Positions 27,551 to 55,224 of a DNA stretch of 56,231 nucleotides are shown here, piece after piece. Positions within the stretch are counted from its first letter, which is position 1. Every line of letters starts with the position of its first letter. This DNA is from an uncultured Planctomycetia bacterium (GTDB taxonomy: Bacteria; Omnitrophota; Gorgyraeia; JACOVV01), in assembly GCA_964372345.1 (NCBI GenBank), contig CAYJQR010000003.1:1-56231 (forward strand), written 5' to 3'. The translations under genes were made by a program, and so were the position numbers. Under the pieces are notes generated by a model. The model was not told the DNA's origin and ran no database searches. It worked only from the letters and a program-made list of their open reading frames with translations.

Positions 27551-28261
27551 TTATATCCTCGTATTACAGCCTTGCCTCTCCCCTAATAAAAACTCGGCTA
27601 TTTTAAAATCAAATTCCGTATCAATATCAACGGAGCGTTCTCGCGGCATTACATAACCAACGGTCCCGTTGGAAACAAATGATCTGGTTTGAATCAACCA
27701 CTCTTTATGCGCTACATAAACGGCTCCGTTAAGAAAATAGGTCCGGGGCAAATCTTGTCTTCTCAACGCCGTTTTCTCTTCTATTTCGAGCACCGGCTTC
27801 ATTCGCTCATCAGAATCAAGTGAATACATCCAGTAAGGACTTTTCTGTGTCTCGGTGACCGAAACACAGGCGTTGGCATTTTTTCTGAGGCATTGTTCCA
27901 CACCGCCGTCAATATCCATTACACTGCGCAAAGGAGAAGTTGGCTGAAGCATCATCACCAGATCATAACCTGGAAGCAGAGTCAGGGCGTGTAAAATCGG
28001 TTCGATACCCGGCGTCTCATCCCGTGACAATTCGTCCGGCCGGACAAAAGGGACTTCACATCCCAAAGACTTCGCCAAACGGATGATCTCTTCGTTCTCC
28101 GAAGAAAGAATCAAGCGGTCAATATACTTCGATTTTTTTGCTTCTTCAACCGTCCAAGTAAGCAGTGGTTTCCCCATAAGGGCTGTGACATTCTTACGAG
28201 GCAACCCCTTAGAACCTCCGCGCGCCGGAATAACCGCCAATACTCTTTTTCCCTCGATCAT
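27551..28261 (-). CDS. neuA: acylneuraminate (nonulosonate) cytidylyltransferase
   Basis: VLAVIPARGGSKGLPRKN motif. Start taken at MIEGKR (ATG at 28261) with an AGAGGA SD. The longer ORF would overlap the upstream gene. Confidence 0.8.
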   Translation of the reverse strand: MIEGKRVLAVIPARGGSKGLPRKNVTALMGKPLLTWTVEEAKKSKYIDRLILSSENEEIIRLAKSLGCEVPFVRPDELSRDETPGIEPILHALTLLPGYDLVMMLQPTSPLRSVMDIDGGVEQCLRKNANACVSVTETQKSPYWMYSLDSDERMKPVLEIEEKTALRRQDLPRTYFLNGAVYVAHKEWLIQTRSFVSNGTVGYVMPRERSVDIDTEFDFKIAEFLLGERQGCNTRI

Positions 28262-28272
28262 TGAAATTCCTC

Positions 28273-30639: not shown

Positions 30640-31694
30640 TCTATTAATTCTTCCGTGAGAATCGTGTCCTTTTGTATATTTTTTTTAGCCCTCTTGCCGA
30701 CAATTTCTTCTAGCATCTTTGGCTGCAACCCTGTTGCGGGTCTTTTAAAAACAAGGTCATCTCTTCTGATCATCATTCCCGCAGGAATGTCCTTCATTGC
30801 CGCGATACTTCGTCTCATCCAAGTCAAGTTTTTCAGTTCGGCCGCCGTTGGTTTCTTCATCGGGCTCCCTAGCGCCTTTTCTATCTCCCGTATTCCTCGC
30901 ACAAGATTTCTGAATTCATCAGGTTCTAAGGAAGAGGAATGATCTGGGCCAGGAAGCGTCCGATCCAATGTAAAATGCTTTTCGACAATGACAGCTCCCA
31001 AAGCCACAGCCGTATAAGCAGAAAAATGGCTTTGTGTGTGGTCTGAATATCCCACCAACACATTCAAATCATCTCTCATAGAAACCATGGCCCTTAGATT
31101 CGCGTCTTCTATGGCGGAAGGATAATTTGTCGTACATTGCAGCAGGATTACCTGATCATTTCCAGTCGTTCGAACCGCTTCCAAGGATTCACGAATCTCC
31201 TCTACGGTAGACATTCCCGTTGACAGAATGATCGGCTTATTTAGTTTTGCAATGTATTTTAGAAAAGGGCTCTCGACTAATTGCCCCGAAGCAATTTTAA
31301 AAGCGTCCACATTCAGGCCGTTTAAGAAATCTACATCACTAAAATGATAGGGTGTTGAAAGGAATTGAATATCCAATTCCTGACACAGGGAAATAAGTCT
31401 AGGATAGATATTTTCTGATAGCTCCAGCTTCTTGAGCATTTCAAACTGAGACTCTTGGGGATCGGTAGTCTTCAGTTGGTAAGCGGCTTTAGGTGATTGT
31501 CTGGTTGTGACTGTTCCCGCCTTAAATGTTTGGAACTTTACACAATCGGCCCCTGATTTTTTCGCCTGCCTGACCAACTCAAGCGCTAACTCTGTGTCTC
31601 CATTATGATTAACCCCTGCTTCCGCAACAATAAAAACCGGCGCTCCTTCACCGATCGTTTTCCTTCTTAGCTTGATTGTCTTCGACATACCCAC
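30636..31694 (-). CDS. neuB: N-acetylneuraminate/legionaminate/pseudaminate synthase family (NeuB), with C-terminal SAF domain
   Basis: 352 aa with FIVAEAGVNHNGD, CVKFQTFK and GYSDHT motifs. Confidence 0.85.
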   Translation of the reverse strand: MGMSKTIKLRRKTIGEGAPVFIVAEAGVNHNGDTELALELVRQAKKSGADCVKFQTFKAGTVTTRQSPKAAYQLKTTDPQESQFEMLKKLELSENIYPRLISLCQELDIQFLSTPYHFSDVDFLNGLNVDAFKIASGQLVESPFLKYIAKLNKPIILSTGMSTVEEIRESLEAVRTTGNDQVILLQCTTNYPSAIEDANLRAMVSMRDDLNVLVGYSDHTQSHFSAYTAVALGAVIVEKHFTLDRTLPGPDHSSSLEPDEFRNLVRGIREIEKALGSPMKKPTAAELKNLTWMRRSIAAMKDIPAGMMIRRDDLVFKRPATGLQPKMLEEIVGKRAKKNIQKDTILTEELIE

Positions 31695-32765: not shown

Positions 32766-33770
32766 ATGACTAAAAAGCAAACAATCACCTGGCTTGTCCC
32801 CCAACGTCCTTGGAAACGTTTCTTGCGGCCGTGGTCCTCTTCACAGTGGCATCCGGATCATTCACTGGGAAGTGTTTGGATCAGGGGACATCAAATAGCC
32901 CCCTACCTCCAACAAAAGGGATATTCAGTGCTTTGCAACAAAATCTCCCCTTCGCTGGATATTGCTATTTTCTTACGCCGCTACGACGCGGAAGATGTCA
33001 TCCTGGCTCAACGATTAAAAAAACGAGGAGTCAAGATCATCGTGGATGTTGTTGCGAATTATTTTAGCCAGGCCTCTTCTCAACAAAGAGACACTTTTCT
33101 AAGACTCATTGATTTAGCGGACCAGATATGGACGGTGTCCCCCTTCCTGAAGGAGGTCGCTTCGGCCCATCACCCTGATGTTCATTTCATTCCTGATTCC
33201 GTGAATCCTCATCACTTCTACAAACGAGACATTCCTAATACTACGACGATGAAAAAACCGCCTCTCGCCATCGGATGGGCTGGGATTTCTCACAAGGCCT
33301 CTTTTTTAGCGATGTTGACGCCTGTCCTGAGACCAGCGATAGAACAGAAAAAATTACGCGTGGTGGTCATCAGCGATTCTCATCCCAAACTTCCTTTTCC
33401 TTTTGAATTCCGCCGCTGGCGGTATTCTTGTTTCCCACGCGATATTTCAACGTGCGATCTTTGTGCCGCTCCTCGTGACCTGGGTAACGATTATGAAAAA
33501 AGTCATAGTTTCTTTAAGATCGGTGTTTTCATGGCTATGGGAGTTCCTGCGCTAGCGAGCAACGTCCCTTCGTATCGCTTGCTACTGGAAGACGGTAAAG
33601 CTGGGGCTATTTGTCACTCTCTGGAAGAGTGGGGGTATCATCTTAGCCGTTACATAGCTATGCCCAAGTTGAGAATGGAGTGGAGCCGTCAATCCTATCA
33701 GAAGATGGTTCCTTTTCTCACCCCCTCTGTTGCAGAACAAATCGCCGAACAGCTGCGCCGCTTTTCTTAA
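32766..33770 (+). CDS. hypothetical protein, possible divergent GT-B glycosyltransferase
   Basis: 334 aa, transcribed 3 nt downstream of the preceding GT. Only weak GT-B-like C-terminal features (FKIGVFMAMGVPALAS). Confidence 0.4.
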   Translation: MTKKQTITWLVPQRPWKRFLRPWSSSQWHPDHSLGSVWIRGHQIAPYLQQKGYSVLCNKISPSLDIAIFLRRYDAEDVILAQRLKKRGVKIIVDVVANYFSQASSQQRDTFLRLIDLADQIWTVSPFLKEVASAHHPDVHFIPDSVNPHHFYKRDIPNTTTMKKPPLAIGWAGISHKASFLAMLTPVLRPAIEQKKLRVVVISDSHPKLPFPFEFRRWRYSCFPRDISTCDLCAAPRDLGNDYEKSHSFFKIGVFMAMGVPALASNVPSYRLLLEDGKAGAICHSLEEWGYHLSRYIAMPKLRMEWSRQSYQKMVPFLTPSVAEQIAEQLRRFS

Positions 33771-40801: not shown

Positions 40802-42469
40802 CTATGTCAACCGTCCGACCGAAACACTTCCCTCGATTTCGGAACTCGATTCAATCAAATTCGCTTGAATCCCTTTTGAGCGAATCAGACTCGAATATTT
40901 CCTGTAATACTCTTCCGGATCTCGCCTTTGTACAACCTCTGTGAATTCCTTATAGAATCGCTGAACTCGTTCCTCTAATATCGCTGGGTTGATGTTTGTT
41001 AACTGGATCCGGCTTTTTGTAAAATTAATCCGTCTGGCGCCATCTTTAGTCACCAATCCTTTTTCTAAAGATTGATGATATAGTTCAGAACCCGGAATAG
41101 CCGTGGCGACAAATACTGAAACGCTGGTGAAATGTAATTTCTCTTTAGCAAACTCAAATCCTTCTTCAATTTCCTCTAGTGTTTCCCCAGGCATTCCCAC
41201 CACTAGTGTTCCATGGGTGAAGATGCCGTATTCTTTGGCTTTTGCGATTAGACCAGGAATACTATCTAAGTTGACCGGTTTGTGATGCAATTCTTTTAGG
41301 GTTCGGACATTGGCGCTGTCCAGGGATAATGTAATCTGATAAAGGCCTGACTTGGCCATTAAGTCTACTAGTTCAGGAGTCAATGTATTGATCATTGTCC
41401 CATTAGGTGTGCACCATTTAATGTTTGTTTCTTTTAATCTCGTAAAAAAATCAACGGAATGCTTACGGTCTAGCGTCAAATTATCATCAGCAAATTGGAT
41501 CTCATCAATATCGTACTTCTCCTTTAATCGAAAAATTTCCCGCATAATGTTATCCACCGAACGAACACGGTATTTTTTATACAAGTTCGTACTCGCGCAA
41601 AACGTACAGCTAATCGGACACCCTCTGGAGGTCAATAACTGAGCTACACGACCGCCTTGAGGAACCGGTGAAAAAGGTATGTTAATCTTAAAATATTTTT
41701 CCATTGGCAACAAATGATAGGCGGGAAACGGCAAGGCATCTAAGTCTTGTACTGTTTCCCGCTGGTGGTTGCAAAAAAATTCTCCGTCTATATAACCGGC
41801 CAAGCCATCCGCGTTACGATCGACAACCCCTGATTTTAGATGATTAATAAACTTAACCAAACGATATTCCCCTTCCCCACGGATAACAAAATCAACTGTT
41901 CTCTGGGTTCCGTGATACTTTTGATCAAGTTCAAAGATGTCTTTAGGATAAATTGTTGGATGCAATCCGCCAACGACCACTGTTGCGTCCGGAAAAACCT
42001 TCTTAACAATTCGAGTTAAAGTGAATAAATTGTCCAAATCTGTTGAAAACAAAACAGACGTCCCCACCACATCAGGAACTTTACATTGGCGTAATTTCCT
42101 CTCGATATCTTCCGGCGTTAAACCGTAGGTCATCAGGCCATCTTCATAGATCTCCTGATCATATCCCTCTACCGTACAATCAACCATAGAGACATTAAGA
42201 CCCGCGGACTCAAGGGAAGCGGCAATATAGCTTAACCCTAAGGGAGGGATACAGCGCTTGATCATATTCTTTGGAATCGTAATGGGTGGAGCAATTAACA
42301 GTGTTTCAATATCATCTCCTGCCTGTTCTTTATAATCATGCAGGTCCGGTTTTTGGCCGGTAAATTGAGTCGTGCCCGTTTCTGACTTATTGGCCAGGTA
42401 TTCCCGGAGTTCATTGTTGCCCAAGGCTTCGTTTAAACGTGTTCCTATAAATTGGTTTTCCATTTTCAT
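40802..42469 (-). CDS. class B (B12-binding domain) radical SAM enzyme
   Basis: 555 aa with the SRGCPISCTFC (CxxxCxxC) motif and an N-terminal B12-binding-like Rossmann region (VVVGGLHPT). Confidence 0.8.
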   Translation of the reverse strand: MKMENQFIGTRLNEALGNNELREYLANKSETGTTQFTGQKPDLHDYKEQAGDDIETLLIAPPITIPKNMIKRCIPPLGLSYIAASLESAGLNVSMVDCTVEGYDQEIYEDGLMTYGLTPEDIERKLRQCKVPDVVGTSVLFSTDLDNLFTLTRIVKKVFPDATVVVGGLHPTIYPKDIFELDQKYHGTQRTVDFVIRGEGEYRLVKFINHLKSGVVDRNADGLAGYIDGEFFCNHQRETVQDLDALPFPAYHLLPMEKYFKINIPFSPVPQGGRVAQLLTSRGCPISCTFCASTNLYKKYRVRSVDNIMREIFRLKEKYDIDEIQFADDNLTLDRKHSVDFFTRLKETNIKWCTPNGTMINTLTPELVDLMAKSGLYQITLSLDSANVRTLKELHHKPVNLDSIPGLIAKAKEYGIFTHGTLVVGMPGETLEEIEEGFEFAKEKLHFTSVSVFVATAIPGSELYHQSLEKGLVTKDGARRINFTKSRIQLTNINPAILEERVQRFYKEFTEVVQRRDPEEYYRKYSSLIRSKGIQANLIESSSEIEGSVSVGRLT

Positions 42470-42481
42470 TGAGGGGAAATT

Positions 42482-44458
42482 TCAGGTCACCGATAGTAAT
42501 TCGTCATCCATGCCTGATTCATCCACAACAGCAAACTTGGGGGTGATAATTCTTTTCCTTTCCTGAGCAATGACCATGAATTTTATCCTAAACTCTTCCG
42601 CCAATTTCTGAAAGAGGTCATTGTCTGTTTCCGCCCTGCGTATTTCATCCCATCTACTTTCATCAAAAGCCACATAAAGTGGACAACATCTGGCTATTCC
42701 ACGCAACTCATCCGCCGGCAGGGTCGGTTGAGAGAGCGCCTGGTTGGGGTCTCGATAATCTCCGACTAGATGATTTTCGTGGATTAGACGCACCTCTCTC
42801 GCAAGATGACGAGCCTCGGTTCCACCCAATGGGATGAAAACGTTGAACATAACACCCACGCGACCCGAATGATTCATTCTTTTTGCCAGTCGTACCGTTT
42901 TCATAATAGTCTCGCGACTTTCCCCGGGAACACCAATAATTGTATTTGCTGTGCCGCGAATCATTGGATGCGATCCTTCATCTTGATTATAGTCTTCTTT
43001 TTCTACAACCCTGATTCTGAACTTTGAGGTGTAAAACCAGCCCTCTTTGTCTGGTTTTTGGGGTTTCTCCGAAAGTTCTCTTCTAAACCCGCCAGGCAAA
43101 TCCTCTGCTTCTAGCCTCCATCTATCAAGTTGTCCATAGGTAGTTAAATTATCAAAGGCATTGAGGATAGTCTCATCTGTCATATAACGACTCATAATAC
43201 GTGTTCTAATGTCTACATCCCCCGACTCGACTCCAACGCTAATGCCTTCACAACCCGCTGCTGCCAAAGCTTTAACCCTGAATTCTTCTTGTAGTGTTTC
43301 AGGACGCGTTTCCAACCAAAAAGGCAATTTTGCCTGACACCCCCAATTTCGGACAAACTCCCAAAATGATTCCATAAATTTCTCTGTTTTTCCAACCGGA
43401 AGCGCATTTTCCGCAATAATGTACCAGTATTGGATACCATACCTAGCTGTCTTCTCTTTTACTTCTTTAACAACCTTATCCATCGGCCTCTCTCTAAAGT
43501 TGGAACGACCATCTAATACCCTATAACGATTTTGTATACAGAAATCACAGGCATAGGGACACCCCTGCTGCCAGATCACTACTCCCGTCGGCCTCACGAC
43601 TCCGCCCATTGGCTTAAGAAAACGTTTCCCTTGCCAAATCGTCCAATCCTGCTCAGGGAGTAAGTCCAGATCCATTGGCTCTCTAAATCGCGGCGTAGGG
43701 AAAACTGGGTTGCCCTGTTTATCTTTTGTCCATATATTAGGTATATTGGTGATACTTTCTCTTTTGTATATCGCATTCGCCAATTCCACAAGTGCAGGGT
43801 ATCCTTCCCTGAATCCCAGCATATCAATATTCGGTTCATTGATATACCCTTTTTCTCCAAATGAACTCACATGGGGACCTCCGAAAATAGTTGGGATGGG
43901 CTTAGTATATCCTGCTGATTTTAAGAACTTTGGATCAGCAATGGCATTCGCAAGAGAAACACCCAGGAAATGAGTCATCTCTAGGACCGAAACACCTATT
44001 AAATCGGGTTGAAATTCTACGATAATTTTCTTAAAATCTTCAATGACATCTCCCTTTTCAAAATGTATTCCGTATTTTGAATAATTAGTCGGTATGACTT
44101 GCAATGTTCCAGCCCGTGCTTCGTCGCCAGTAGTTTTTAAAGATGTATATTGTTCTGTATGATAAAAAGTGGTATCAAAAAATTGCACTTCATGCCCAGC
44201 GGACTTTAGGCCGCTAGACAAAATCCCAAGACCTGCGTGTACAAGGGTATCAAACATATTATTGGAGTATACTAACAAAACTCGCAGACCTGTTTTACCT
44301 TTTCGTGGTATTGCCGCTAACTTTTCTTCAATCGGTGTATAAGCTCCGCCTGGAGGCACATAGACATATGGATCTGTTAAAGCTGGAGGGTGATTAAGAT
44401 AATCAGGATCAATTTCTATGAATTGAGCTAAGATTTTATCGACTGATTGTTGGTCCAT
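42482..44458 (-). CDS. class B (B12-binding domain) radical SAM enzyme, long form
   Basis: 658 aa with the QQGCPYACDFC (CxxxCxxC) motif and an N-terminal B12-binding-like region (IFGGPHVS). It ends 12 nt upstream of the next rSAM gene. Confidence 0.8.
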   Translation of the reverse strand: MDQQSVDKILAQFIEIDPDYLNHPPALTDPYVYVPPGGAYTPIEEKLAAIPRKGKTGLRVLLVYSNNMFDTLVHAGLGILSSGLKSAGHEVQFFDTTFYHTEQYTSLKTTGDEARAGTLQVIPTNYSKYGIHFEKGDVIEDFKKIIVEFQPDLIGVSVLEMTHFLGVSLANAIADPKFLKSAGYTKPIPTIFGGPHVSSFGEKGYINEPNIDMLGFREGYPALVELANAIYKRESITNIPNIWTKDKQGNPVFPTPRFREPMDLDLLPEQDWTIWQGKRFLKPMGGVVRPTGVVIWQQGCPYACDFCIQNRYRVLDGRSNFRERPMDKVVKEVKEKTARYGIQYWYIIAENALPVGKTEKFMESFWEFVRNWGCQAKLPFWLETRPETLQEEFRVKALAAAGCEGISVGVESGDVDIRTRIMSRYMTDETILNAFDNLTTYGQLDRWRLEAEDLPGGFRRELSEKPQKPDKEGWFYTSKFRIRVVEKEDYNQDEGSHPMIRGTANTIIGVPGESRETIMKTVRLAKRMNHSGRVGVMFNVFIPLGGTEARHLAREVRLIHENHLVGDYRDPNQALSQPTLPADELRGIARCCPLYVAFDESRWDEIRRAETDNDLFQKLAEEFRIKFMVIAQERKRIITPKFAVVDESGMDDELLSVT

Positions 44459-44589
44459 GTTGCTTAAAACCTATCGTATTGCCAGGTTGGATTAACTTCT
44501 GCAATCGTCTATTGATGGCCAAAGGGAATCTACCATAAAAAACCAACGAAAGTCAAGAGCATTTTCGGATCTTGGAGGAATTAATCCTT

Positions 44590-45468
44590 TCATCTCTTCA
44601 AGAACAGATTCATATATGTTTCTCTCCGGGATACCTTCAAAAGTTCTTCCGTAGAGATTTTCTCGACTTTCTTCTTCCCCTCATTAAGGTGCGAAATGTC
44701 AAAACCGTAGTCCCTGCATTGGGCTAAAAATTTCGCCGTCGTTGATCCCGCCTGAATAATCTTATCCGGGCAAAATTCGCAAAGCATCATGATCGCCGGA
44801 TTCTTTTTGATGGTCTCTTTCATGCCTGCCAAGGCTAAAAATTCGGCTCCCTGAATATCCATCTTGATGAAATCGATCTTGGGCCAATCCCGCTCGCTCA
44901 AAAAATGATCAAGCGTTGTGGCTTCAATCTCGATGGAAGGCCGCCCGTCGGCTGGGTCATAGATTCTATGATCTCCCTGATTGGCTTTGTTCAACCAGAG
45001 AACGATCCGTCCTGATTGATTGGAGACGGCTTTAGGGATGGCAATGGCATTGGCGCAATGATTAGCTTGGATATTCTTGAGGAGAAGCGCGTACTGGCCG
45101 GGTTCCGGTTCAAAAGAGAAAACTCTGCCGTTAACCCCTACGCAATCCGCAAGCAGTATTGTGTAGTATCCCAGATTGGCCCCAATATCAACAACGGTCA
45201 TCCCAGGATTGATGATCCCTTTGAAGAATTCTGATTCAAATTTTCCCATCATCGAAAACTTATACAGATAGAGCGCCAGTACCCGATCTGGGCTCTTCGC
45301 GAATAATTCATGGCATCCAATTTTGACGCGGATACCGTTCTCTGTTTTGACGCATCGGCCTAAAAACCTCGACGCACCGGCCGTAATTATGGAATTTTCT
45401 AAGCGGGTTAATATCCTAGAGAGCGTCATCTTTGAGAACCCATCCACCTCTTCCAACGACACCTCCAC
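44590..45468 (-). CDS. FkbM-family methyltransferase
   Basis: VVDIGANLGYYT motif. Depending on the start chosen, the start region overlaps the lpxA 3-prime end by 14-53 nt. Confidence 0.75.
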   Translation of the reverse strand: MEVSLEEVDGFSKMTLSRILTRLENSIITAGASRFLGRCVKTENGIRVKIGCHELFAKSPDRVLALYLYKFSMMGKFESEFFKGIINPGMTVVDIGANLGYYTILLADCVGVNGRVFSFEPEPGQYALLLKNIQANHCANAIAIPKAVSNQSGRIVLWLNKANQGDHRIYDPADGRPSIEIEATTLDHFLSERDWPKIDFIKMDIQGAEFLALAGMKETIKKNPAIMMLCEFCPDKIIQAGSTTAKFLAQCRDYGFDISHLNEGKKKVEKISTEELLKVSRRETYMNLFLKR

Positions 45469-46228
45469 AAATCCCTCTCCTGGAACTTTCGATAAATTCG
45501 ACGATACACGCGGTCTCCGCGGACGGAGCCTGCTCTTTTAAAAGAACCAGCGCGCGCGAAAGATTCATCCCGGAATAGTACAGGGTTTTAAAATCCTGCC
45601 TTATTCTTTCTCTCTGTTCCGAAGTATATCCCGCTCTCCTCAGGCCGGTAACGTTCACGGCACACACCCGCGATTCTCCTTTAGCGAGCATAAACGGCGG
45701 CACGTCCTTGCTGATTCTCGAGAGCCCGCCGATCATGGTCAGTTGTCCAATCCGGACAAACTGATGAACAACAACGTTCCCGGAAATAAACGCCCCATCT
45801 CCAACCTCCACATAACCGGCCAGCAAAGAACCGTTGGCCAAAACGACGCGATTGCCGATCCGGCAGTCGTGAGCAATATGGGAATGCGCCATGATAAAGT
45901 TATTGTCGCCGATCAACGTCGTGGATCCCTCTTTGGATCCCCGGTGAATGGTCGCGTATTCCCGAATCAAATTGTTTTTTCCGACGCGGACCGTGCTCTT
46001 GATTTCTTTTTTAAAGCCCCAATCCTGCGGCACATGTCCAATAACAGCTCCCATATGAATTTCCGTGTTCTCGCCGATTTCAGCGGAACCGGTGATGTAG
46101 GCATGGGCATAGACTTTGACCCCTTTGGCAAGAGTGACGTGATCATCCACGATCGCATAGGGACCGACTTCAACCCCGCTGGCTATCTTGGCTTTGGGGT
46201 GAACGATTGCCGTCGGATGAATTGCCAT
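45416..46228 (-). CDS. lpxA: acyl-ACP:UDP-N-acetylglucosamine O-acyltransferase
   Basis: 270 aa. Hexapeptide-repeat left-handed beta-helix followed by the LpxA-type helical C-terminal domain (VNVTGLRRAGYTSEQRERIRQDFKTLYYSG). Confidence 0.8.
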   Translation of the reverse strand: MAIHPTAIVHPKAKIASGVEVGPYAIVDDHVTLAKGVKVYAHAYITGSAEIGENTEIHMGAVIGHVPQDWGFKKEIKSTVRVGKNNLIREYATIHRGSKEGSTTLIGDNNFIMAHSHIAHDCRIGNRVVLANGSLLAGYVEVGDGAFISGNVVVHQFVRIGQLTMIGGLSRISKDVPPFMLAKGESRVCAVNVTGLRRAGYTSEQRERIRQDFKTLYYSGMNLSRALVLLKEQAPSAETACIVEFIESSRRGICGGVVGRGGWVLKDDAL

Positions 46229-46283
46229 ATTGGGGGGAAAGATATGGAGTCGGTTAATCTGTCAAGAGCCGCAAGAAAACCGT

Positions 46284-47807
46284 CTACCCGATTGGAATGA
46301 AAGTGGGCTTCAACCGTTGCGCAGCCTCTTGACTGAGAATCTCATTTCGTCTTTTAATCATATCTTCTCTTTTTTTAAGCCGTTCGTCTTCCAGGTCCTT
46401 TTGAACGCTCAAAACATACCCGACGGGGTTATATTTTGTGTTTCCAGTTTCATCGACTTCGGCAAGTCTGGCGGCGACTAAACGTTTTGCGGCAACGATA
46501 AATTTCTTAAAGTCGTCTTCTAAAAAAGACCCGTTAAGGAGTCCGCCCTTTTGTAAATAACCCACCATCGGTTTCCCCATCACAGTATGATGGCGGATTA
46601 AAGAAGTCAACATTCGGATATCATAGTATTCCCGAACGCCGAGTTCTTCAATGACCAGCGGCGCGGTTAAAAGATCGCTGAAAATATAATCGCCCCGTCT
46701 TAGGTAACGTGTCCGCTCGATGAACGTCTGGTAATTGCTTTTCACGGCCTTTGAATCCCTCACCGAGACCGTCACAGGAACTACGGCGTCATAGTTAAGC
46801 AAGCTTTGGTGGATGGCATGCATATCATCGTGATCGGATCGAATGATGCATCGATACACGTCGTCGACATCGATGTGGGTTGGGCAGATATCGCAGGCCA
46901 AACACCTCATAATATTCCTGTCGGCAATATCCAAGATCATCGCCTCCAGCGGTTCTCCGCAGTTTCTAATTAATTGCTGAACGCAATTCTTTGCTAACCC
47001 ATCCGCATCTTGCAGAATCCAAAATAACACTTTCACGGGTCCTTGAAGTTCACGGCCGTAATGAAGCTTTCTGAGCAGACTGGAAATCCGCCGTCCGGTC
47101 CCCATAGAAGTCCACAGTCCGTACTCATCCTTATGCATTGTCCCGACGTCTCCAGCGTGGCCGGTGCCGCCGTATTGGGAAGTGGTTTCGCTGTCATTTC
47201 CAATGGCGAGCAATCCCAAACTAACCATGTCGAGCATCTGGTAAATCAAAGTGGTTTCTTGTCCTCCATTCCTTTTGGCTCCCACGGCGATTCCTCCATA
47301 GAGTTTTCCGCGGAGACCCGCTCGCAGCTCCTCGTCCTGACGGATAAGTTCGATTAGGGAGTGGGCTAAACTGCCTCGATCTCCGAAGTAGACCGGGCCG
47401 GAAATCAGAAACCCATCTGACTCCATGAGTTTCCTTTTGAGCTCGTCGAGATTTCGGACACTGCCCCAAGCCGTGAAATACTCCGCTAAAGAAATGTGAT
47501 CAATCTCTACGCCTTTTTGATGGGCTGACCACAAAGCAGCCGCAAGGGCCACTTCCGAATTGCTCAGTCCCTTATTGCCGGCTTCTTTTCTGAGGTTGCT
47601 GTAAATCTCCAGGAAAGGTTTCTTTTCTCGTCTTCCTGCTTCCAGAAAGTTCTCCAAATGCTGTTCTGACTCTCTCGTCAGAAAACCTTTCAACTCCTCC
47701 TCCGTTTTTATAGCTTTCAATGATTCCACCAAATCGCGATTGCCGAGTCCCCAACGGGCATTTCTTAAACTGGCCGCGATTCCCAAAAGCTTGGCTTGAT
47801 TTTTCAT
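46284..47807 (-). CDS. tandem flavodoxin-like (NADPH-dependent FMN reductase / iron-sulfur flavoprotein-like) oxidoreductase
   Basis: 507 aa. The first half has LISGPVYFGDRGS and GGIAVGAKRNGGQETT segments. The second half carries the compact Cys motif CLACDICP...C. Confidence 0.45.
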   Translation of the reverse strand: MKNQAKLLGIAASLRNARWGLGNRDLVESLKAIKTEEELKGFLTRESEQHLENFLEAGRREKKPFLEIYSNLRKEAGNKGLSNSEVALAAALWSAHQKGVEIDHISLAEYFTAWGSVRNLDELKRKLMESDGFLISGPVYFGDRGSLAHSLIELIRQDEELRAGLRGKLYGGIAVGAKRNGGQETTLIYQMLDMVSLGLLAIGNDSETTSQYGGTGHAGDVGTMHKDEYGLWTSMGTGRRISSLLRKLHYGRELQGPVKVLFWILQDADGLAKNCVQQLIRNCGEPLEAMILDIADRNIMRCLACDICPTHIDVDDVYRCIIRSDHDDMHAIHQSLLNYDAVVPVTVSVRDSKAVKSNYQTFIERTRYLRRGDYIFSDLLTAPLVIEELGVREYYDIRMLTSLIRHHTVMGKPMVGYLQKGGLLNGSFLEDDFKKFIVAAKRLVAARLAEVDETGNTKYNPVGYVLSVQKDLEDERLKKREDMIKRRNEILSQEAAQRLKPTFIPIG

Positions 47808-48874
47808 GTTGAAACCTCCTTGAACAACCTCTTTAAAAAGGGTTGTTTATGGACTACGATTTCTTTTGTTTCCTGGGTGACCGCGCGGAGTTTCTCGTCT
47901 GAAACCTTCAAACATCCTCTGAGTTCAAAGTTCCTTTCAAGCAATGACCGCTCTAATTTTAAATAGCCATTGCATTCCAAATCCATGGAAAGTTCGTTTC
48001 TGTGAGCAATCCGAATTTCATGCCAGCATCCGATTTCCCCTTGAAAACCGTTTCCCCAAATCACTCGAAGACCCAATTCCTTGGCTTTCTGAATCATTTT
48101 TGAACTTCTCTCCGGGCCTCCCTGCTTGAGCAGCTTTAACTTCACCCACTCCACACCCCATTCCTTGGCTCGATAAAGGTCTTCTTCTGTCCATATGGAT
48201 TCATCCAGCATAATGGGAAACGGAAGATTTTCCACTTCGAGAAGCTTCTCCCAGTCATCCTTTAGAAAAGGTTGTTCCAAATATTCGATTTGATCAAGAG
48301 GAACTTTTTCAGCGAATACCCTCGCGTCTTGCACCGAGTAACTTTGGTTGGCATCTACCCTCAACTTCCCCTCTCCCGGCAATAAGATCAGGATTTCTTT
48401 TATGATCCTTACATCCTCTTCAATCCCTGCCATGCCCACCTTTACCTTAATCGTCCGGTACCCCTTTTCCACTAACGATAAAACGTCCTTCAAAACTTTC
48501 GACTTCTCTCTGCCAATGCCAACAACCCCGACCAGGGGAGGGATCTCGTCAATTGAATCTTCGGGAAAAACAAGAAGATGCTCTACCGCGGTCATGATTG
48601 CCGAAGCAGTGAACGGTTTTTTAAAGAGACAGGATTCGTCGCCGGCTTCCAAAGCCATTGCTACGTGACGAACATTCTGCCAAATATATTCTTCGGTCTC
48701 CCAAGAGTATCCGGCAAGAGGAACTGTTTCTGCGAATCCGCATTTTCCGGTTTCGCTCGCGGCCCGGCAAATGACTCCCTTTAAGAAGTCATGGCTCCCA
48801 AGGGAAAGCTCATAAGTTCTTTTTAAAGGCTGCGTTACACGATAAAATTCTAGACGGATTTCTTCTGATCTCAC
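47804..48874 (-). CDS. enolase-superfamily enzyme, muconate-lactonizing (MLE) subgroup (dipeptide epimerase / N-acyl amino acid racemase / OSBS-like)
   Basis: 356 aa with IKVKVG (KxK), LRVDANQSY, IEYLEQP, MLDES and VKLKLLKQGG motifs. Apparent GTG start. Confidence 0.7.
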   Translation of the reverse strand: MRSEEIRLEFYRVTQPLKRTYELSLGSHDFLKGVICRAASETGKCGFAETVPLAGYSWETEEYIWQNVRHVAMALEAGDESCLFKKPFTASAIMTAVEHLLVFPEDSIDEIPPLVGVVGIGREKSKVLKDVLSLVEKGYRTIKVKVGMAGIEEDVRIIKEILILLPGEGKLRVDANQSYSVQDARVFAEKVPLDQIEYLEQPFLKDDWEKLLEVENLPFPIMLDESIWTEEDLYRAKEWGVEWVKLKLLKQGGPERSSKMIQKAKELGLRVIWGNGFQGEIGCWHEIRIAHRNELSMDLECNGYLKLERSLLERNFELRGCLKVSDEKLRAVTQETKEIVVHKQPFLKRLFKEVST

Positions 48875-48891
48875 TTAACTCACTTAATACC

Positions 48892-48920
48892 ATGATATGA
48901 CAAAAGATATCGAGAGTCAA
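48892..48920 (-). promoter_or_regulatory. candidate internal sigma70 promoter
   Basis: On the minus strand: TTGACT (48915-48920), a 17-nt spacer, then TATCAT (48892-48897). It lies in the 92-bp AT-rich gap upstream of the enolase-superfamily gene. Confidence 0.5.
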
Positions 48921-48966
48921 TCATATGTATCTTAACTTATTCAGCATAGCGGTCTCTTCTTTGCTT

Positions 48967-50010
48967 CTAGGAGCAATCCGATATTTCCATTAGAGATTTA
49001 GGTAAAACCAGGTCGTTTTGCGTCCGCACTAAGATAACATCCGTGTCGTAACGAGAAAAATTTTCGGTTTTCAGTCCAAAAACTAAAGAATCCACCGTCG
49101 CTTTTGGGAAATTCATGCCGATTGCAGTTGACAAAAAACTATACCCCCAATACCGCGGATTGATTTCTAGGAAAACATATTCTCCCGTTTTTTCATTTTT
49201 TTTAAATTCAACATTAACGGGTCCGCGCCACCCGCCTATCTCATTAAGAAGAGCCCGCCCTTGTCGTGTGACAACGTTGTCGTAGATGGGTTCTCCGGCG
49301 ACCCCTGGCCCGCCAAAACTAAATTTAGTCCTTAGACTCCTGCTGCAAAATTCACTGAGGGACCGTCCCCCGGCGTCAAAAAAAGCGGCGTAGAGATAAA
49401 TACTTCCGGAACCGCCGGGCACGTAAGATTGTAGAAGAATAGGAATCTTTTTCTTTAAGAGATCCTTTGCGTAAAACCGCAATTCCGCCATGTCATGGAG
49501 AATCCGCACGTGACTGGCGCCATCTCCGGTGTTGGGTTTCACCAACATGGGGAATTGAATATTGCGCCTCTCTACCTGCTTAAGCTGGCGGCTGTTTTTT
49601 ACCAGTGTCGTCCTGGGAAACGGTATTGAAAGCTTATCGCAAAGACGACAACATTCATATTTATTCAGAGCGGTTTTAACCGCGCCGTATTTGGAAGCGA
49701 GGAGGAGGATCCCTCTGGCATCAAAATATTTTTTCTTCTTGGTGAACTGATAGACTTCTGAATCTGACACCGGGAAAATTGCGTCTATTTTTTCTTTTCT
49801 ACAAACATTCATCACCTGACCGATAAAACGCGAATCCGTCCCATTGGGCGCTCGATATCGCGGCATTCGCGGGTATAACGCAAAGGCCGATCCTAACCGT
49901 TCGCTATCGGCAAGCACGAGTTCAACACGCGGGTCATCCAAAAGCCCCTTAATGATAGAAAGACCGCAGGAAGAATTAGCGGACGTTATCAGAACTCGTT
50001 TTTTTTTCAC
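48967..50010 (-). CDS. ATP-grasp domain ligase
   Basis: 347 aa with pre-ATP-grasp and ATP-grasp architecture (FPMLVKPNTGDGASHV, VNVEFKKNEKTGEYVFLEINPR). Its start abuts the upstream stop. Confidence 0.7.
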   Translation of the reverse strand: MKKKRVLITSANSSCGLSIIKGLLDDPRVELVLADSERLGSAFALYPRMPRYRAPNGTDSRFIGQVMNVCRKEKIDAIFPVSDSEVYQFTKKKKYFDARGILLLASKYGAVKTALNKYECCRLCDKLSIPFPRTTLVKNSRQLKQVERRNIQFPMLVKPNTGDGASHVRILHDMAELRFYAKDLLKKKIPILLQSYVPGGSGSIYLYAAFFDAGGRSLSEFCSRSLRTKFSFGGPGVAGEPIYDNVVTRQGRALLNEIGGWRGPVNVEFKKNEKTGEYVFLEINPRYWGYSFLSTAIGMNFPKATVDSLVFGLKTENFSRYDTDVILVRTQNDLVLPKSLMEISDCS

Positions 50011-51048
50011 CTAAAAAATATCCTCCCATGTAATAGGATCTCCCTTCCGGATGCCTCTCTTTAGCCGTTTCCCAATCACGTCATGCCAGCGCCAAGAATC
50101 AACTCCTTTACCGTCTTCTCTTCGCATGCACACTATATTCTCTTGTGTCAGCAAACCAGCTTCGCTCACATCACACGCGGCAACAATGCGCCTACGCATA
50201 GCGTGCAGTCTCTCCTTTTCCTTCTGTATCGGTCCCTTTTTATGAGAACCCAGTTCCTTTTCAACCTCTCGTATCAGCTTCACCATATGCCCCATCACCT
50301 CCGGACTTGCAGAAATGGCATGATCCGGACCTTGCATCTTAACATCCAAAGTAAAATGTTTTTCTATCATCTTCACTCCAAGAACCACTGCCGCAGGTGA
50401 AGCGGATATCCCCATCGTGTGATCAGAAAAACCTGTCGGATAACCGGGGAATGCCTTCTGTATCGATAAAAGCATCCGGAGGTTAACGTCTTCTGGTTTT
50501 GTCGGATATTGCAGCACACAGTGTAGGAGTCCGACTTCGCTGGCTCCGTTGCTTTCCAACACTTCAACCGCTTTATGAATTTCGCCGATCGTGGAGCCGC
50601 CTGTCGATAACAAAACAGGCCTTTTGATTCCTGCCACCGCCTCTAAAAGAGGGACATTTGAGATATTACTTGAACCGATCTTAATGATAGGAAACCCTAT
50701 CCGCTTTATAATAGGGACGCTCGTAACTTCAACGGCTGTCGTAAACATGACGATGCCGACTTCTTCCGAGAATTTTTTTAGTTCCCGAAATTCCCTCTCG
50801 TCTAATTCGTAATCCTTATATTCGCCATAATCCGGCGAATTCTTGTAAACGAAATTCTCTGTGACATAGGTCTGAAACTTTATTGCGTCGCACCCGATCT
50901 CCTTTGCTTTTACAATCATCTTTTTAGCGACCTCTACGGAGCCGTTGTGGTTGACTTCCGCTTCGGCAATGATAAACACGCGGGGAGTTTTGCCGGGGGT
51001 TAATTCCTCAAGAAATGATTTTTTTGTTTCTTCTCTTATTACTGACAT
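50011..51048 (-). CDS. NeuB-family PEP-condensing ulosonic acid synthase, second paralog, with SAF domain
   Basis: 345 aa with FIIAEAEVNHNGS, AIKFQTY and GFSDHT motifs and a C-terminal SAF-like segment. Confidence 0.8.
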   Translation of the reverse strand: MSVIREETKKSFLEELTPGKTPRVFIIAEAEVNHNGSVEVAKKMIVKAKEIGCDAIKFQTYVTENFVYKNSPDYGEYKDYELDEREFRELKKFSEEVGIVMFTTAVEVTSVPIIKRIGFPIIKIGSSNISNVPLLEAVAGIKRPVLLSTGGSTIGEIHKAVEVLESNGASEVGLLHCVLQYPTKPEDVNLRMLLSIQKAFPGYPTGFSDHTMGISASPAAVVLGVKMIEKHFTLDVKMQGPDHAISASPEVMGHMVKLIREVEKELGSHKKGPIQKEKERLHAMRRRIVAACDVSEAGLLTQENIVCMRREDGKGVDSWRWHDVIGKRLKRGIRKGDPITWEDIF

Positions 51049-51061
51049 CTTCTGGCGCTCA

Positions 51062-51955
51062 TCAATCGTCCGCCTCAGCGGTAGCCGTTTGGCGCTCTAA
51101 AATGTATTCCTCAACCCAGCGGTCGCCGCACTGGGATTGATGGTAAATCGCTATTATCAGCAATGGGATTGTCGTTACAGCGTAGAAAATAGGAACCCAC
51201 TCCAGCTTATTCAGCAAAGCGGCTCCGTAAATAATTCGCAAACAGCATTCACCTTTCCAAACCCATCGAATTCGATTGAAAAGAGTCCGGAAAAATTTGG
51301 ATTGGGTCAGGCGCGGCCGTTTCCCGGGCTGTGATTTAAAAGACTCCTCCCGCAGTATCTGCACCATTCTCTTATAACGGAATTGTCTTTGGAAGAGAAA
51401 ATAGCTGATGATCTTGGCCCGACGAAGATTGTTGTAAAGGAAGAACCCATGAGCGGCAATAAAACCGGCGATTAAGATGACGCCCGGCGGGAAATGTTCC
51501 ATCCCTCTAACGGCTAGAGAAAACAGGGAGCAGGGATAAATAATATCGTGTCCCACCCGGTCCAAAAAGACCCCCGATGACGAGACCTGATGCCGCGCGC
51601 GGGCTATCACCCCGTCCACCTCGTCCAACAAAAGATGAGAATAAAGAAAGAGGCACCCAAGAAAGGTGGTCAGACCTGCGGGGATAGACAAAAGCCAGCA
51701 TCCTGAAATACCCACCACGATCCATAGGACCGTTATCTGATTGCCGGAAACAACAGTCTTGTTTACCAGAAAAGTCGCCAGATGCGTCGCCAACCGGCCA
51801 TAAAAACTTCTCTGAAACCATGTATCATTCATGTCGTTTTCACGGGGAGCGACATACTTTTGTCTCAGCTCCCCAAGGGACATTTGAGGTTGTTCCATAA
51901 TTTCGATCTTAAACTTTGGTGTTGTATAAGTCAAGGACATAGGGGGCGTTGTCAT
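51062..51955 (-). CDS. CDP-alcohol phosphatidyltransferase family membrane protein
   Basis: 297 aa and polytopic. DEVDGVIARARHQVSSSGVFLDRVGHD is a close match to the DxxDGxxAR...G...D...D signature. Confidence 0.75.
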   Translation of the reverse strand: MTTPPMSLTYTTPKFKIEIMEQPQMSLGELRQKYVAPRENDMNDTWFQRSFYGRLATHLATFLVNKTVVSGNQITVLWIVVGISGCWLLSIPAGLTTFLGCLFLYSHLLLDEVDGVIARARHQVSSSGVFLDRVGHDIIYPCSLFSLAVRGMEHFPPGVILIAGFIAAHGFFLYNNLRRAKIISYFLFQRQFRYKRMVQILREESFKSQPGKRPRLTQSKFFRTLFNRIRWVWKGECCLRIIYGAALLNKLEWVPIFYAVTTIPLLIIAIYHQSQCGDRWVEEYILERQTATAEADD

Positions 51956-53206: not shown

Positions 53207-54214
53207 ATGGATTGGGCGAAGCTGACGGATGAGGAACTGCTGGAAAAACGGATCTGTGACCTCGCGTTGACAATTGAGGGGACAGAACTAGAGCCCAGAG
53301 TCGCCGAGCTTTATAAAGAGCTGGGAGAAAAAGGAATTTTCTTTCATCCCACTTGTTACTTGGGAGATGAATGGTTCACGCCGGAAGACGTTCCCGCGAT
53401 CGCGATCCCCTTTTATCTTGCGCATCCCCGTTTGAAAAAGTTAGAATACAAAATGATGCTGGAAGTCGAGGGGGAGACCGAAGAATGGTGCATGCGTTTG
53501 CTGCGGCATGAAGCAGGACATGCCCTCAACCACGCCTATCATTTCTACAAACAGCCGCAATGGCAGAAACTTTTCGGCTCGCCATCCAAAGAACTGACCT
53601 ACGTCTACAAACCCCGTCCCTACAGCCGGAATTACGTGATTCATCTGGACAACTGGTACGCGCAAAGCCACCCGGAGGAAGATTTCGCGGAAACCTTCGC
53701 CGTCTGGCTGACGCCGGGACTCGATTGGCGCGATAAATACAAAGGATGGAAAGCTCTTGAAAAACTGAATTATGTGGACCAGATGATAAACGAGGTCCGC
53801 GGGAATCCTCCTCTGGTGAAATCGGGCGCTCAAATATGCGACGCGGCGCGGCTGAAATCCAAATTGAAAACGTTTTATCAGCGGAGGCGAAAAGTCCTGG
53901 CGCAGGATTACCCATGGTTCTATGATACCGACTTAAAACGGCTCTTCTCCGATGACCCCTCGTTCGATCCTAAAGAGAAAGCTTCCCGTTTTATGCAACG
54001 CCATCACAAAACACTGCTGGAGACCGTCTCGCGATGGACGGGAGAGAAAAAAATCAACGTCAACCGCCTTCTGAAAGATTTATCCCAACGCTGTGACGAG
54101 CTCTCTTTGCGGGTTCATCAGGATGAATCGGCGGCCCGTTTTGAATTACTGGCTTACTTAACGACTCTTGTGACTCATTACCGGGTTACCGGAAAATTCA
54201 AACATCAGGTATGA
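53207..54214 (+). CDS. putative zinc metallopeptidase (HExxH)
   Basis: 335 aa with a LLRHEAGHALNH zinc motif. 4-nt overlap with the downstream ATP-grasp gene. Confidence 0.6.
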   Translation: MDWAKLTDEELLEKRICDLALTIEGTELEPRVAELYKELGEKGIFFHPTCYLGDEWFTPEDVPAIAIPFYLAHPRLKKLEYKMMLEVEGETEEWCMRLLRHEAGHALNHAYHFYKQPQWQKLFGSPSKELTYVYKPRPYSRNYVIHLDNWYAQSHPEEDFAETFAVWLTPGLDWRDKYKGWKALEKLNYVDQMINEVRGNPPLVKSGAQICDAARLKSKLKTFYQRRRKVLAQDYPWFYDTDLKRLFSDDPSFDPKEKASRFMQRHHKTLLETVSRWTGEKKINVNRLLKDLSQRCDELSLRVHQDESAARFELLAYLTTLVTHYRVTGKFKHQV

Positions 54215-55224
54215 AAAAAGTAAAAGTCCTTGTTTTATGCGATTACCCGGGTCCGCCGCCGGCCGGCCATGATTTCACCGAAGAACTTAAGAAGGAAGAC
54301 TGGAAGACGGAAGCCGACATAGTCAATGCTTTGAAGGAGCTGGAGCATGAAGTCCGCATGCTCGGAGTTTATGATGATATCAATGCCATCATTGGCGAAG
54401 TAAAAACGAATCCTCCGGATGTTGCTTTCAACCTCGTCGAGCAATTCAAAAATTTCCCTCACTATGAACGCAATATCGCGGCCCTGCTGGAGCTCCTCGG
54501 TATCCCCTACACCGGCTGTGACGTTCCGGGCTTAATGATCTGCAAGAATAAGGGATTGACCAAGAAAATCCTCACCTATCACCGGGTCAAAGTTCCTGAC
54601 TTCTCTATTTTTCCCTGCGGCAAACCGATCCACCGTCCCAAACGGTTGAACTTTCCAATTTTCATCAAACCGCTGCGCGATCAGGGATCGTATGGGATCT
54701 CCCAGGCCTCTTTCGTCGAAAACGACGCTGATTTCATCGAACGGATCCACTTTATTCACGATCGCTTTCATCAAGACGCCATCGCGGAGGAATACATTGA
54801 AGGACGAGAGCTGTATGTCAGCATTCTCGGCAACGAACGCCTTGAAGTTTTTCCCGTCCGAGAGATGATTTTTAGCGAAATCCCGGATGAGGAACCGAAA
54901 TTCGCCACTTTCAAAGCCAAATGGGATCAGGAATACCGCAAACGATGGGGGATTAAGAATACCTTCGCCAACAAACTCCCCGACGGCATCGCTGAAGACA
55001 TTCCGGTTTTAGCGAAAAAAGTTTACCACGTTCTTCAAATTCGTGGATATGCCCGTTTGGATTTAAGACTGACTCCGCAGGGATCCGTTGTCGTCATCGA
55101 GGCCAATCCTAATCCCATGCTGGCCAAAGAGGAAGATTTTTCTCTCTCTGCGCAAAAAGGAGGGTTGGAATATTCTCAATTGATCCAGCGAATCTTGAAT
55201 CTGGCGTTACGGTCGCAGGAATAA
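54211..55224 (+). CDS. D-alanine--D-alanine ligase-like ATP-grasp enzyme
   Basis: 337 aa with FNLVE, LELLGIPYTGC, FPIFIKPL, EEYIEGRELYVSILG and ARLDLRL...VVIEANPNP segments. Confidence 0.75.
   Translation: MKKVKVLVLCDYPGPPPAGHDFTEELKKEDWKTEADIVNALKELEHEVRMLGVYDDINAIIGEVKTNPPDVAFNLVEQFKNFPHYERNIAALLELLGIPYTGCDVPGLMICKNKGLTKKILTYHRVKVPDFSIFPCGKPIHRPKRLNFPIFIKPLRDQGSYGISQASFVENDADFIERIHFIHDRFHQDAIAEEYIEGRELYVSILGNERLEVFPVREMIFSEIPDEEPKFATFKAKWDQEYRKRWGIKNTFANKLPDGIAEDIPVLAKKVYHVLQIRGYARLDLRLTPQGSVVVIEANPNPMLAKEEDFSLSAQKGGLEYSQLIQRILNLALRSQE

Follow-up and report, generated by a model that had tools for sequence, protein, structure and literature searches.

A mosaic five-gene string at the edge of a bacterial surface-glycan locus and the recurrent ATP-grasp, enolase-superfamily and flavoprotein cassette within it

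Do five genes that are tightly packed on one strand also work together? The question is raised by positions 46284-51955 of a 56,231-nucleotide (nt) stretch of DNA from an uncultured Planctomycetia bacterium (assembly GCA_964372345.1, contig CAYJQR010000003.1, positions 1 to 56,231; GTDB lineage Bacteria; Omnitrophota; Gorgyraeia; JACOVV01), the whole of which is referred to as the window. In order of transcription, the minus strand there encodes a CDP-alcohol phosphotransferase homologue of 297 amino acids (aa; 51062-51955), which opens the run, a NeuB-family protein of 345 aa that we call NeuB2 (50011-51048), an ATP-grasp ligase (48967-50010; 347 aa, GTG start), an enolase-superfamily enzyme of the MLE subgroup (47804-48874; 356 aa, GTG start) and a two-domain flavodoxin-like flavoprotein (46284-47807; 507 aa). 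A first-pass annotation had put forward, as a plausible reading, a single pathway in which the five build an amino-acylated ulosonic-acid head group, joined by a phosphodiester link, on a carrier lipid or glycan. Our analysis describes the string as a mosaic around a nucleus of the flavoprotein and the MLE-type enzyme, usually joined by the ATP-grasp ligase; that this nucleus decorates glycans is a reading to which we give an even chance.

The layout of the string is as first described. Genes one and two are separated by 13 nt, the TAG stop codon of the NeuB2 gene directly abuts the GTG start of the ATP-grasp gene, 92 nt lie between the third gene and the fourth, and the MLE stop and flavoprotein start share an ATGA (a 4-nt overlap) with AGGAGG 7 nt upstream. 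The motif-based family calls were likewise borne out, all five proteins passing the Pfam gathering threshold in profile searches, and none of the five could be placed in an NCBIfam equivalog. The promoter that had been proposed to break the string within the 92-nt gap fared less well. The sigma-70-like match (TTGACT-17-TATCAT, 48920-48892, minus strand, 10/12 consensus positions) is real, but such matches are no commoner in the region than in shuffled sequence (14 versus 10.5 ± 2.9); it is a consensus match only, and was rejected as a break in the operon. The choice of 46284 as the 3' end is arbitrary, for the genes on that strand go on to 40802 (whole run 40802-51955, minus strand).

Which of these genes travel together was assessed with the flavoprotein as anchor, chosen as the least annotated and most distinctive of the five. 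A one-genome-per-species scan gave 182 confirmed flavoprotein loci, 80 of which were taken with 10-kilobase (kb) flanks. Neighbours were identified by tblastn with the window proteins and by clustering of all neighbouring open reading frames (ORFs), and counts out of 68 refer to species-level loci flanked on each side by at least 2.5 kb. The 80 loci span the Nitrospinota (the nearest, at 65-66% identity), Spirochaetota, Cyanobacteria, Bdellovibrionota, Bacteroidota, Desulfobacterota, Verrucomicrobiota, Planctomycetota, Myxococcota, Acidobacteriota, Nitrospirota and Omnitrophota, as well as the Alpha-, Beta- and Gammaproteobacteria.

An MLE gene adjoins the flavoprotein gene (<400 base pairs) in 42 of the 68 loci (62%), 24 times downstream and 18 times upstream but always on the shared strand, and lies within 10 kb in 49/68. 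ATP-grasp genes, either of the window's type or of a second, PylC-like type, occur within 5 kb in 33/68 loci, the triad of flavoprotein, MLE and ATP-grasp is complete in 26/68, and NeuB is found within 10 kb in 11/68. The CDP-alcohol transferase was near the flavoprotein in 0/68 loci, and the full quintet was never found among the flavoprotein loci scanned by tblastn with the window proteins. The quintet was rejected as a conserved unit, since none of these loci holds all five genes. What is well supported is a unit of flavoprotein and MLE, usually with ATP-grasp, within a string of mosaic structure; the ATP-grasp/MLE/flavoprotein portion is a genuine conserved unit. Close spacing was no guide to a conserved pathway here: of the five genes, only three or four travel together.

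The company kept by this unit is largely that of surface sugars. Its neighbours are dominated by amino-sugar and sugar-acid genes, including those for DegT aminotransferases (24 loci), AsnB-like amidotransferases (19 loci), WbpB-like GFO oxidoreductases (13 loci), hexapeptide acyltransferases (9 loci), N-deacetylases and NeuB. SDR epimerase/dehydratases (19 loci) are also frequent, and WbmS-, PIG-L- and polysaccharide-deacetylase-like proteins, glycosyltransferases and Wzt occur nearby as well. The ATP-grasp/MLE/flavoprotein cassette recurs in surface-sugar clusters of more than a dozen bacterial phyla.

By the first-pass annotation's own account, a single pathway should keep its genes together in related genomes. 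With the CDP-alcohol transferase missing from every flavoprotein locus counted, that model is largely refuted by lack of co-occurrence, and we regard it as very improbable. Speaking for it are the co-directional and tightly packed genes, with no terminator-like site found in the intergenic gaps of the string, and a NeuB2 that has no cytidylyltransferase of its own but a phosphotransferase-family gene 13 nt upstream. Against it, the relatives of the transferase (loci L086-L089) are unlinked to the other four genes, and the closest NeuB2 homologue has no CDP-alcohol transferase neighbour. The phosphodiester-linked ulosonic acid is moreover a chemically strained product, because the donors of CDP-alcohol phosphotransferases are CDP-X diphosphates, whereas nonulosonic acids are activated as CMP monoesters; the last catalytic Asp of the window's transferase is also displaced.

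The transferase is nonetheless a recognisable member of its family. PF01066 (CDP-OH_P_transf) matches residues 72-163 with 33.5 bits against a gathering score of 22, and the best NCBIfam matches are inositol-phosphate-type synthases, far below their cut-offs (40.7 bits versus 180). At least four hydrophobic segments by Kyte-Doolittle analysis (two within residues ~68-106, then 155-177 and 251-272) point to a polytopic membrane protein. The Pfam match, the polytopic character and most of the signature motif liken it to PgsA, PIP synthase and archaetidylinositol-phosphate synthase, while at 297 aa it exceeds E. coli PgsA (182 aa) by ~100 residues. The canonical motif of the CDP-alcohol phosphatidyltransferases, DxxDGxxAR...GxxxDxxxD, comprises eight metal and catalytic positions. 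The window's enzyme reads D111xxD114GxxAR119x8G128xxxD132, with H136 in place of the last Asp and the Asp shifted by one residue to D137 (DxxxxD), an arrangement that is kept, together with the D111-D132 motif, in a 50%-identical relative.

Relatives of this transferase are very rare, with one at 50% identity among 5.8 billion proteins and three loci in a metagenome scan; two ~50% identical and two ~30% identical relatives (29-32%, L088 and L089) were found in all. Neither NeuB nor ATP-grasp, MLE or flavoprotein genes were found near any of them (L086-L089). The transferase was rejected as a conserved partner on its count of 0/68 flavoprotein loci and the unrelated operons of its relatives. 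It is a lineage-specific add-on with a separate job, for which we propose, for example, phospho-alcohol decoration or anchor synthesis. The two relatives of 49-50% identity (L086, 176-8570; L087, ~4079-12862) share one other operon, conserved and apparently undescribed so far, with genes for CofH_C-type and ThiC-like radical SAM proteins, an aldo-keto reductase, two MetE-like (Meth_synt_2) proteins, the CDP-OH transferase, a ThiI-like protein and an NirDL-like regulator or decarboxylase.

If the transferase is set aside, the firmest association left in the string is that between the flavoprotein and the MLE-type enzyme. Three observations support a functional pairing: their adjacency in 42/68 loci, the ATGA overlap in the window, and a 922-aa protein, P0124, recovered in a search without a word index, in which a flavoprotein (residues 10-514) is fused to an MLE domain (MR_MLE_C, residues 696-896). 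The MLE-type enzyme is therefore a partner of the flavoprotein, translationally coupled to it in the window, and the two probably associate physically.

The flavoprotein is the most conserved member of the cassette, with an identity of 45-66% across phyla. A word-indexed search returned at least 1130 homologues, the best 120 of which are all full length and 56-66% identical and derive from Cyanobacteria, Spirochaetia, Thiomargarita, Stellaceae, Verrucomicrobiota and others. In Pfam it matches FMN_red (47.7 bits versus a cut-off of 24), in NCBIfam no curated model matches it, and a sequence search against solved structures gave weak WrbA matches only. AlphaFold2 models (predicted local distance difference test scores of 84 at full length and 85 for residues 255-507) contain two flavodoxin-like domains, and Foldseek related both halves to flavodoxin, WrbA, ArsH or FMN-reductase folds with a probability of 1.00. 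No full-length structural analogue was found in the PDB by Foldseek, which gave single-domain matches only, along with spurious matches to G-protein-coupled receptor-flavodoxin fusions. Identification by structure was rejected on these grounds, the full-length model and the C-terminal half having yielded generic flavodoxin-like folds only.

Domain 1 carries the FMN_red/WrbA-type motifs SLRNAR, PVYFGDRGS and KRNGGQETT and a long helical insert of ~75 residues. In a loop of domain 2 lies a cysteine motif, CX2CX2CX11C (C302, C305, C308, C320), invariant in 50 flavoprotein sequences, with a run of Arg, His and Tyr residues, likewise invariant, after it; the motif is presumed to ligate a [4Fe-4S] cluster. 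The label 'tandem Fe-S flavoprotein' of the first-pass annotation thus holds for the invariant cysteines and the two predicted flavodoxin-like domains, the Fe-S part being deduced from these features. A flavodoxin-like fold, the FMN_red match and the GGQETT segment are shared with the iron-sulfur flavoprotein (ISF) of Methanosarcina and the WrbA/NADPH-dependent FMN reductases, and the compact cysteine motif resembles that of ISF. The window's protein differs from these in joining two flavodoxin-like domains in one ~500-aa chain, in the helical insert of domain 1, and in a cysteine motif which stands in the second domain and whose last spacer, of 11 residues, is longer than that of the ISF motif, CX2CX2CX5-7C (PMC3164229).

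Could the flavoprotein, then, simply be a general WrbA-like NAD(P)H:quinone or electron-transfer protein, engaged in redox housekeeping, in sensing or as a donor to radical-SAM enzymes, with an MLE gene beside it but no chemistry in common? Its N-terminal domain is WrbA-like, down to the GGQETT motif, its conservation is extreme, and at least three B12-radical-SAM genes lie in the window. It also occurs in settings without an evident glycan: eight loci from Nitrospirota and Alphaproteobacteria place it, at 53-62% identity to the window's protein, beside sCache/MCP chemoreceptor genes, and in cyanobacteria its gene is flanked by a TauE-like and a TauD-like one, with a CheA/MCP cluster alongside. 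Such non-glycan contexts, for which the cassette model offers no explanation, were seen in L020, L027, L034, L039, L042 and L059 (the flavoprotein at ~10001-11500 in most), L002 and L094. Radical-SAM genes are, however, rare in other flavoprotein loci, and an MLE gene adjoining in 62% of loci in either order, a translational overlap and a fusion would be unexpected for an incidental neighbour. We consider a general reductase quite unlikely.

The MLE gene product scores 84.3 bits with MR_MLE_C, above the Pfam cut-off, and is most similar, among solved structures and NCBIfam models, to o-succinylbenzoate synthases (OSBS), N-acyl-amino-acid racemases and dipeptide epimerases. It has the features of the MLE subgroup, strand 2 bearing the KxK, strands 3-5 the Asp/Glu/Asp metal ligands and strand 6 the catalytic Lys. 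These residues, K143/K145, D174, E200, D224 and K247, align to K160/K162, D191, E219, D244 and K268 of the B. subtilis L-Ala-D/L-Glu epimerase YkfB, and the catalytic residues are invariant in 49 flavoprotein-linked homologues that are only 27-33% identical to the window's protein. The enzyme accordingly shares its fold family and the full catalytic set with YkfB/YcjG, the N-succinyl-amino-acid racemases and OSBS. It is, on the other hand, only ~20-25% identical to characterised members and falls below every specific-function equivalog cut-off, including those for OSBS (TIGR01927, 103.8 versus 130.55), Ala-Glu epimerase (64.4 versus 500) and DgcA (65.2 versus 400). It further differs from them in its pairing with a flavoprotein and its location in glycan loci, neither of which, to our knowledge, has been described for any characterised member.

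These scores also bear on a menaquinone function, in which the MLE-type enzyme would be OSBS (MenC) and the flavoprotein a quinone reductase. The best NCBIfam matches of the former are OSBS models, and the N-terminal domain of the latter resembles the quinone reductase WrbA. The OSBS models remain below their cut-off, however, no other men genes lie nearby, and the neighbours are overwhelmingly glycan genes. The menaquinone pair was rejected on sub-threshold scores and gene context, and appears hardly credible.

The third member of the cassette, the ATP-grasp ligase, matches ATP-grasp_3 (29.6 bits versus 23.2) and, in its N-terminal part, PylC-like_N (29.1 versus 27). It falls below the cut-off of NCBIfam PRK12767 (126.6 versus 218), and its closest solved structure is 2pn1, matched over the full length (7e-16). 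The nearest curated families, PRK12767, pseudomurein Ddl-like, CofF, RimK and MptN, are all amino-acid or carboxylate-amine ligases. It shares a homology cluster with the ATP-grasps of 25 flavoprotein loci, the second, PylC-like type being present in 15 more. By analogy, the best functional precedent for this gene would be Cj1438C of Campylobacter jejuni HS:2, an ATP-grasp protein that amidates the C6 carboxylate of glucuronate in the capsule (PMC11800379). Both genes stand in surface-polysaccharide loci, and an amide on a sugar carboxylate is the product of Cj1438C activity (PMC11800379). Compared by description, Cj1438C combines a TupA-like ATP-grasp with a glycosyltransferase in one fused protein, whereas the window's enzyme is stand-alone and PRK12767/PylC-like.

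Where, then, does NeuB2 belong? It is a bona fide member of the NeuB family, with 241.8 bits over the full NeuB profile (1-241) and 23.9 bits for SAF in Pfam, and its closest solved structures are NeuB, SpsE and PseI. It does not reach the product-specific equivalogs TIGR03569 (NeuB; 307.3 versus 399.65) and TIGR03586 (PseI; 230.9 versus 340.25), and is 34% identical to NeuB1 (30636-31694, minus strand), the canonical nonulosonic-acid synthase copy of the window. Its NeuB and SAF domains, and a window that holds the canonical NeuB1 set, recall clusters for sialic, legionaminic and pseudaminic acids, which combine NeuB, LegI or PseI with a CMP-transferase. It differs from these in scoring below the equivalog cut-offs and in having no adjacent cytidylyltransferase. 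This last point, noted at first reading, was confirmed: the only CTP_transf_3 match found in the window is a CMP-sugar-type cytidylyltransferase at 27551-28342 (minus strand, 73.1 bits in Pfam), which would have to serve NeuB2 in addition to NeuB1.

Elsewhere, NeuB is associated with the cassette in a form other than that of NeuB2. In five loci (L008, from the Spirochaetia; L016 and L031, from the Desulfobacterales; L092 and L093) the gene order is short NeuB, CTP_transf_3, ATP-grasp, in some cases a NeuC-like gene, MLE and flavoprotein, with CTP_transf_3 homologues between NeuB and ATP-grasp in L008 and L093 and a BNR-like protein often following the flavoprotein. These module-linked NeuBs are 293-318 aa long and have no SAF domain, and NeuB2 falls outside their clade in a neighbour-joining tree. 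Among 5.8 billion proteins NeuB2 has one close homologue, P0274 (61%), the rest being at most 44% identical; the locus of the 61% homologue (L095, 143-7516, on a 7.5-kb contig) contains no ATP-grasp, MLE or flavoprotein gene. NeuB2 was hence rejected as an orthologue of the module-linked NeuBs, on its position outside the short-NeuB clade and the different neighbourhood of its closest relative. In L095 itself, the NeuB2 homologue is preceded by genes for an FAD-binding protein, the alpha and beta subunits of a class-I fumarase-like enzyme, ComA (phosphosulfolactate synthase), ComB (2-phosphosulfolactate phosphatase) and a NeuC-like protein, a set that suggests a sulfolactate-related decoration of nonulosonic acid.

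The claim that NeuB is coupled to the three genes downstream of it stands in part. In the flavoprotein tree, the window groups with Nitrospinota and NeuB-linked loci, and NeuB occurs within 5 kb for 4/10 of the flavoproteins most similar to the window's, compared with 4/62 of the others (one-sided Fisher p ~0.01). This enrichment within the sub-lineage favours the coupling, while the small numbers and the different lineage of the NeuBs concerned tell against it. NeuB2 probably supplies a sugar acid that is decorated by the cassette.

How might such a decoration proceed? In the scheme that we infer, including its substrates, the order of its steps and the role of the flavoprotein, the ATP-grasp ligase would first link an amino-acid-like unit through an amide to a sugar carboxylate or a sugar amine, the sugar in this sub-lineage probably being the nonulosonic acid from NeuB2 or its precursor. 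The MLE-type enzyme would then abstract the alpha-proton beside the free carboxylate, resulting in L-to-D epimerisation or, given a leaving group, in beta-elimination. The last step, a coupled two-electron reaction of the same substituent such as reduction of an eliminated enamide, may fall to the flavoprotein. N-acyl amino acids with a free alpha-carboxylate are the substrate class of the racemases and epimerases of the MLE subgroup. A substrate of this type is proposed here because an amino acid whose amine is linked to the carboxylate of a sugar is just such an N-acyl amino acid with a free alpha-carboxylate. More narrowly, the flavoprotein and the MLE-type enzyme may constitute an undescribed two-component enzyme, sometimes fused, that acts on an amino-acid-like substituent of surface glycans and links an alpha-proton abstraction of the enolase type with flavin/Fe-S redox chemistry; we offer this tentatively, as a possible but doubtful reading.

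A second type of flavoprotein locus is instructive in this regard. In L053, L074, L078, L080, L083 and L085 the flavoprotein stands beside a Dlt-like set (an AMP-binding enzyme, a small carrier protein and an MBOAT protein), which takes the place of MLE and ATP-grasp, and the MLE gene is missing in 4/6 loci. The Dlt-associated flavoproteins form a separate, basal clade of the family tree. A Dlt-like set would form an ester link via the carboxylate, so that the frequent absence of MLE beside it fits an MLE that needs a free carboxylate.

Several points weigh against a glycan-decorating cassette of this kind. Firstly, its chemistry is read from superfamily membership only. Secondly, the flavoprotein occurs without MLE beside MCP/sCache genes in the eight loci mentioned above and beside TauD/TauE in cyanobacteria, contexts which suggest that its function may be more general than glycan tailoring. 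Thirdly, the identity among flavoproteins (45-66%) is far above that among the MLE-type enzymes (27-33%), a pattern uncommon for a tailoring enzyme with a specific substrate. The single fusion, P0124, could be a frameshift or assembly artefact of two overlapping genes, and, as noted, the NeuB enrichment is based on small numbers and NeuB2 lies outside the module-linked clade.

Finally, a pair that makes an unusual free acid, attached only afterwards, is equally compatible with the same data. Under such a precursor supply, the flavoprotein and the MLE-type enzyme would leave the glycan untouched and make an unusual free acid, or a D-amino acid, from a common metabolite; their product would be attached either by the ATP-grasp ligase to an amino sugar or by the Dlt-like AMP-binding/PCP/MBOAT set to a hydroxyl. 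The flavoprotein is constant across these two attachment chemistries, it accompanies small-molecule genes (TauD, TauE, sCache-MCP) outside glycan loci, and its very high conservation would suit a universal small substrate; the frequent deacetylase and DegT aminotransferase neighbours would expose sugar amines. However, the Dlt-type flavoproteins belong to their own clade and mostly lack MLE, such that the two settings may differ in substrate, and no transporter or precursor-pathway gene is consistently linked to the flavoprotein loci. We judge precursor supply to be unlikely, if worth serious attention.

With decoration of a glycan by the cassette retained as the preferred reading, the novelty of the locus can be delimited. 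All the genes fall into known superfamilies, and a glycan-tailoring cassette is a known kind of locus; what has no known counterpart is the pairing of flavoprotein and MLE and the flavoprotein family itself. The earlier statement that no characterised route has this gene set was upheld in full-text literature searches, NCBIfam, a sequence search of solved structures and a plasmid collection. Full-text literature searches likewise returned no published capsule, O-antigen or teichoic-acid locus matching the gene set, with no match among plasmids either. For the flavoprotein family they returned no paper, and the family has no NCBIfam model and no solved relative.

In bacteria, antigenic and phage-receptor diversity stems mainly from surface-glycan loci, whose tailoring chemistry is for the most part unassigned. 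The flavoprotein retains 45-66% identity from Cyanobacteria to Planctomycetota, Bacteroidota and Nitrospinota, although its annotation stops at 'WrbA-like', and it is locked to an enolase-superfamily partner in nearly two-thirds of genomes, which makes it a well-defined target for function discovery. Solving the cassette would add a new reaction to the enolase superfamily and would probably show how a class of decorations, with amino acids or acids, arises on uronic and nonulosonic acids. A two-component enzyme, if confirmed, would represent a glycan-tailoring reaction that is both new and, with more than 13 phyla, very widespread, and the first function for a 500-residue protein family without a curated model.

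The string itself sits at the edge of one very large (~45 kb) surface-glycan locus of O-antigen or capsule type, which occupies ~7-52 kb of the window. Pfam scans identified in it a Wzm/Wzt-type ABC transporter, many GT2, GT4 and PMT_2 transferases, two AsnB-like amidotransferases, three DegT aminotransferases and SDR epimerase/dehydratases, in addition to the canonical set of NeuB1, methyltransferase, CBS-DegT and CTP_transf_3 at 27.5-31.7 kb. Four ORFs of the window had no Pfam match at E <= 0.001: 25421-26806 (minus strand, 461 aa), 26807-27550 (minus strand, 247 aa), 32766-33770 (plus strand, 334 aa) and 2739-4154 (plus strand, 471 aa). Three of these lie inside the glycan locus, beside the NeuB1/cytidylyltransferase set.

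Downstream of the flavoprotein, the same-strand run continues with an LpxA-type acyl-ACP sugar O-acyltransferase (45416-46228, minus strand), which starts 55 nt after the flavoprotein and scores 313-315 bits with NCBIfam LpxA equivalogs (cut-offs 226-231). LpxA-like genes are rare near the flavoprotein elsewhere (2/68 loci). The lpxA equivalog stands alone in the glycan locus, and because the usual fabZ-lpxA-lpxB setting is missing, its product may acylate a different nucleotide sugar. Its ORF overlaps by 53 nt that of an FkbM-family methyltransferase (44590-45468, minus strand; Methyltransf_21, 74 bits; TIGR01444, 100.9 bits), and an FkbM gene also follows the flavoprotein directly in L071 and L077.

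Two B12-radical-SAM proteins come next, of 658 aa (42482-44458, minus strand) and 555 aa (40802-42469, minus strand), the second an equivalog of the Sden_1168-family P-methyltransferases (615 bits versus a cut-off of 575). A further gene at 22883-24610 (minus strand) brings the total in the glycan locus to three, which hints at an unusual C- or P-methylation of a glycan. A phosphonate link between the Sden_1168-type P-methyltransferase and the CDP-alcohol transferase was considered and rejected, as Pfam scans of window ORFs of at least 150 aa gave no match to phosphoenolpyruvate (PEP) mutase.

Beyond the other end of the string lie divergently transcribed genes without evident glycan function, a LOG-family gene and then one for a squalene/phytoene synthase. 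Upstream of the latter, just outside the glycan locus, the plus strand at 53207-55224 carries a putative zinc metallopeptidase-like ORF, with a weak Peptidase_Mx match below the cut-off, which overlaps by 4 nt a gene for an ATP-grasp protein of the D-Ala-D-Ala-ligase type.

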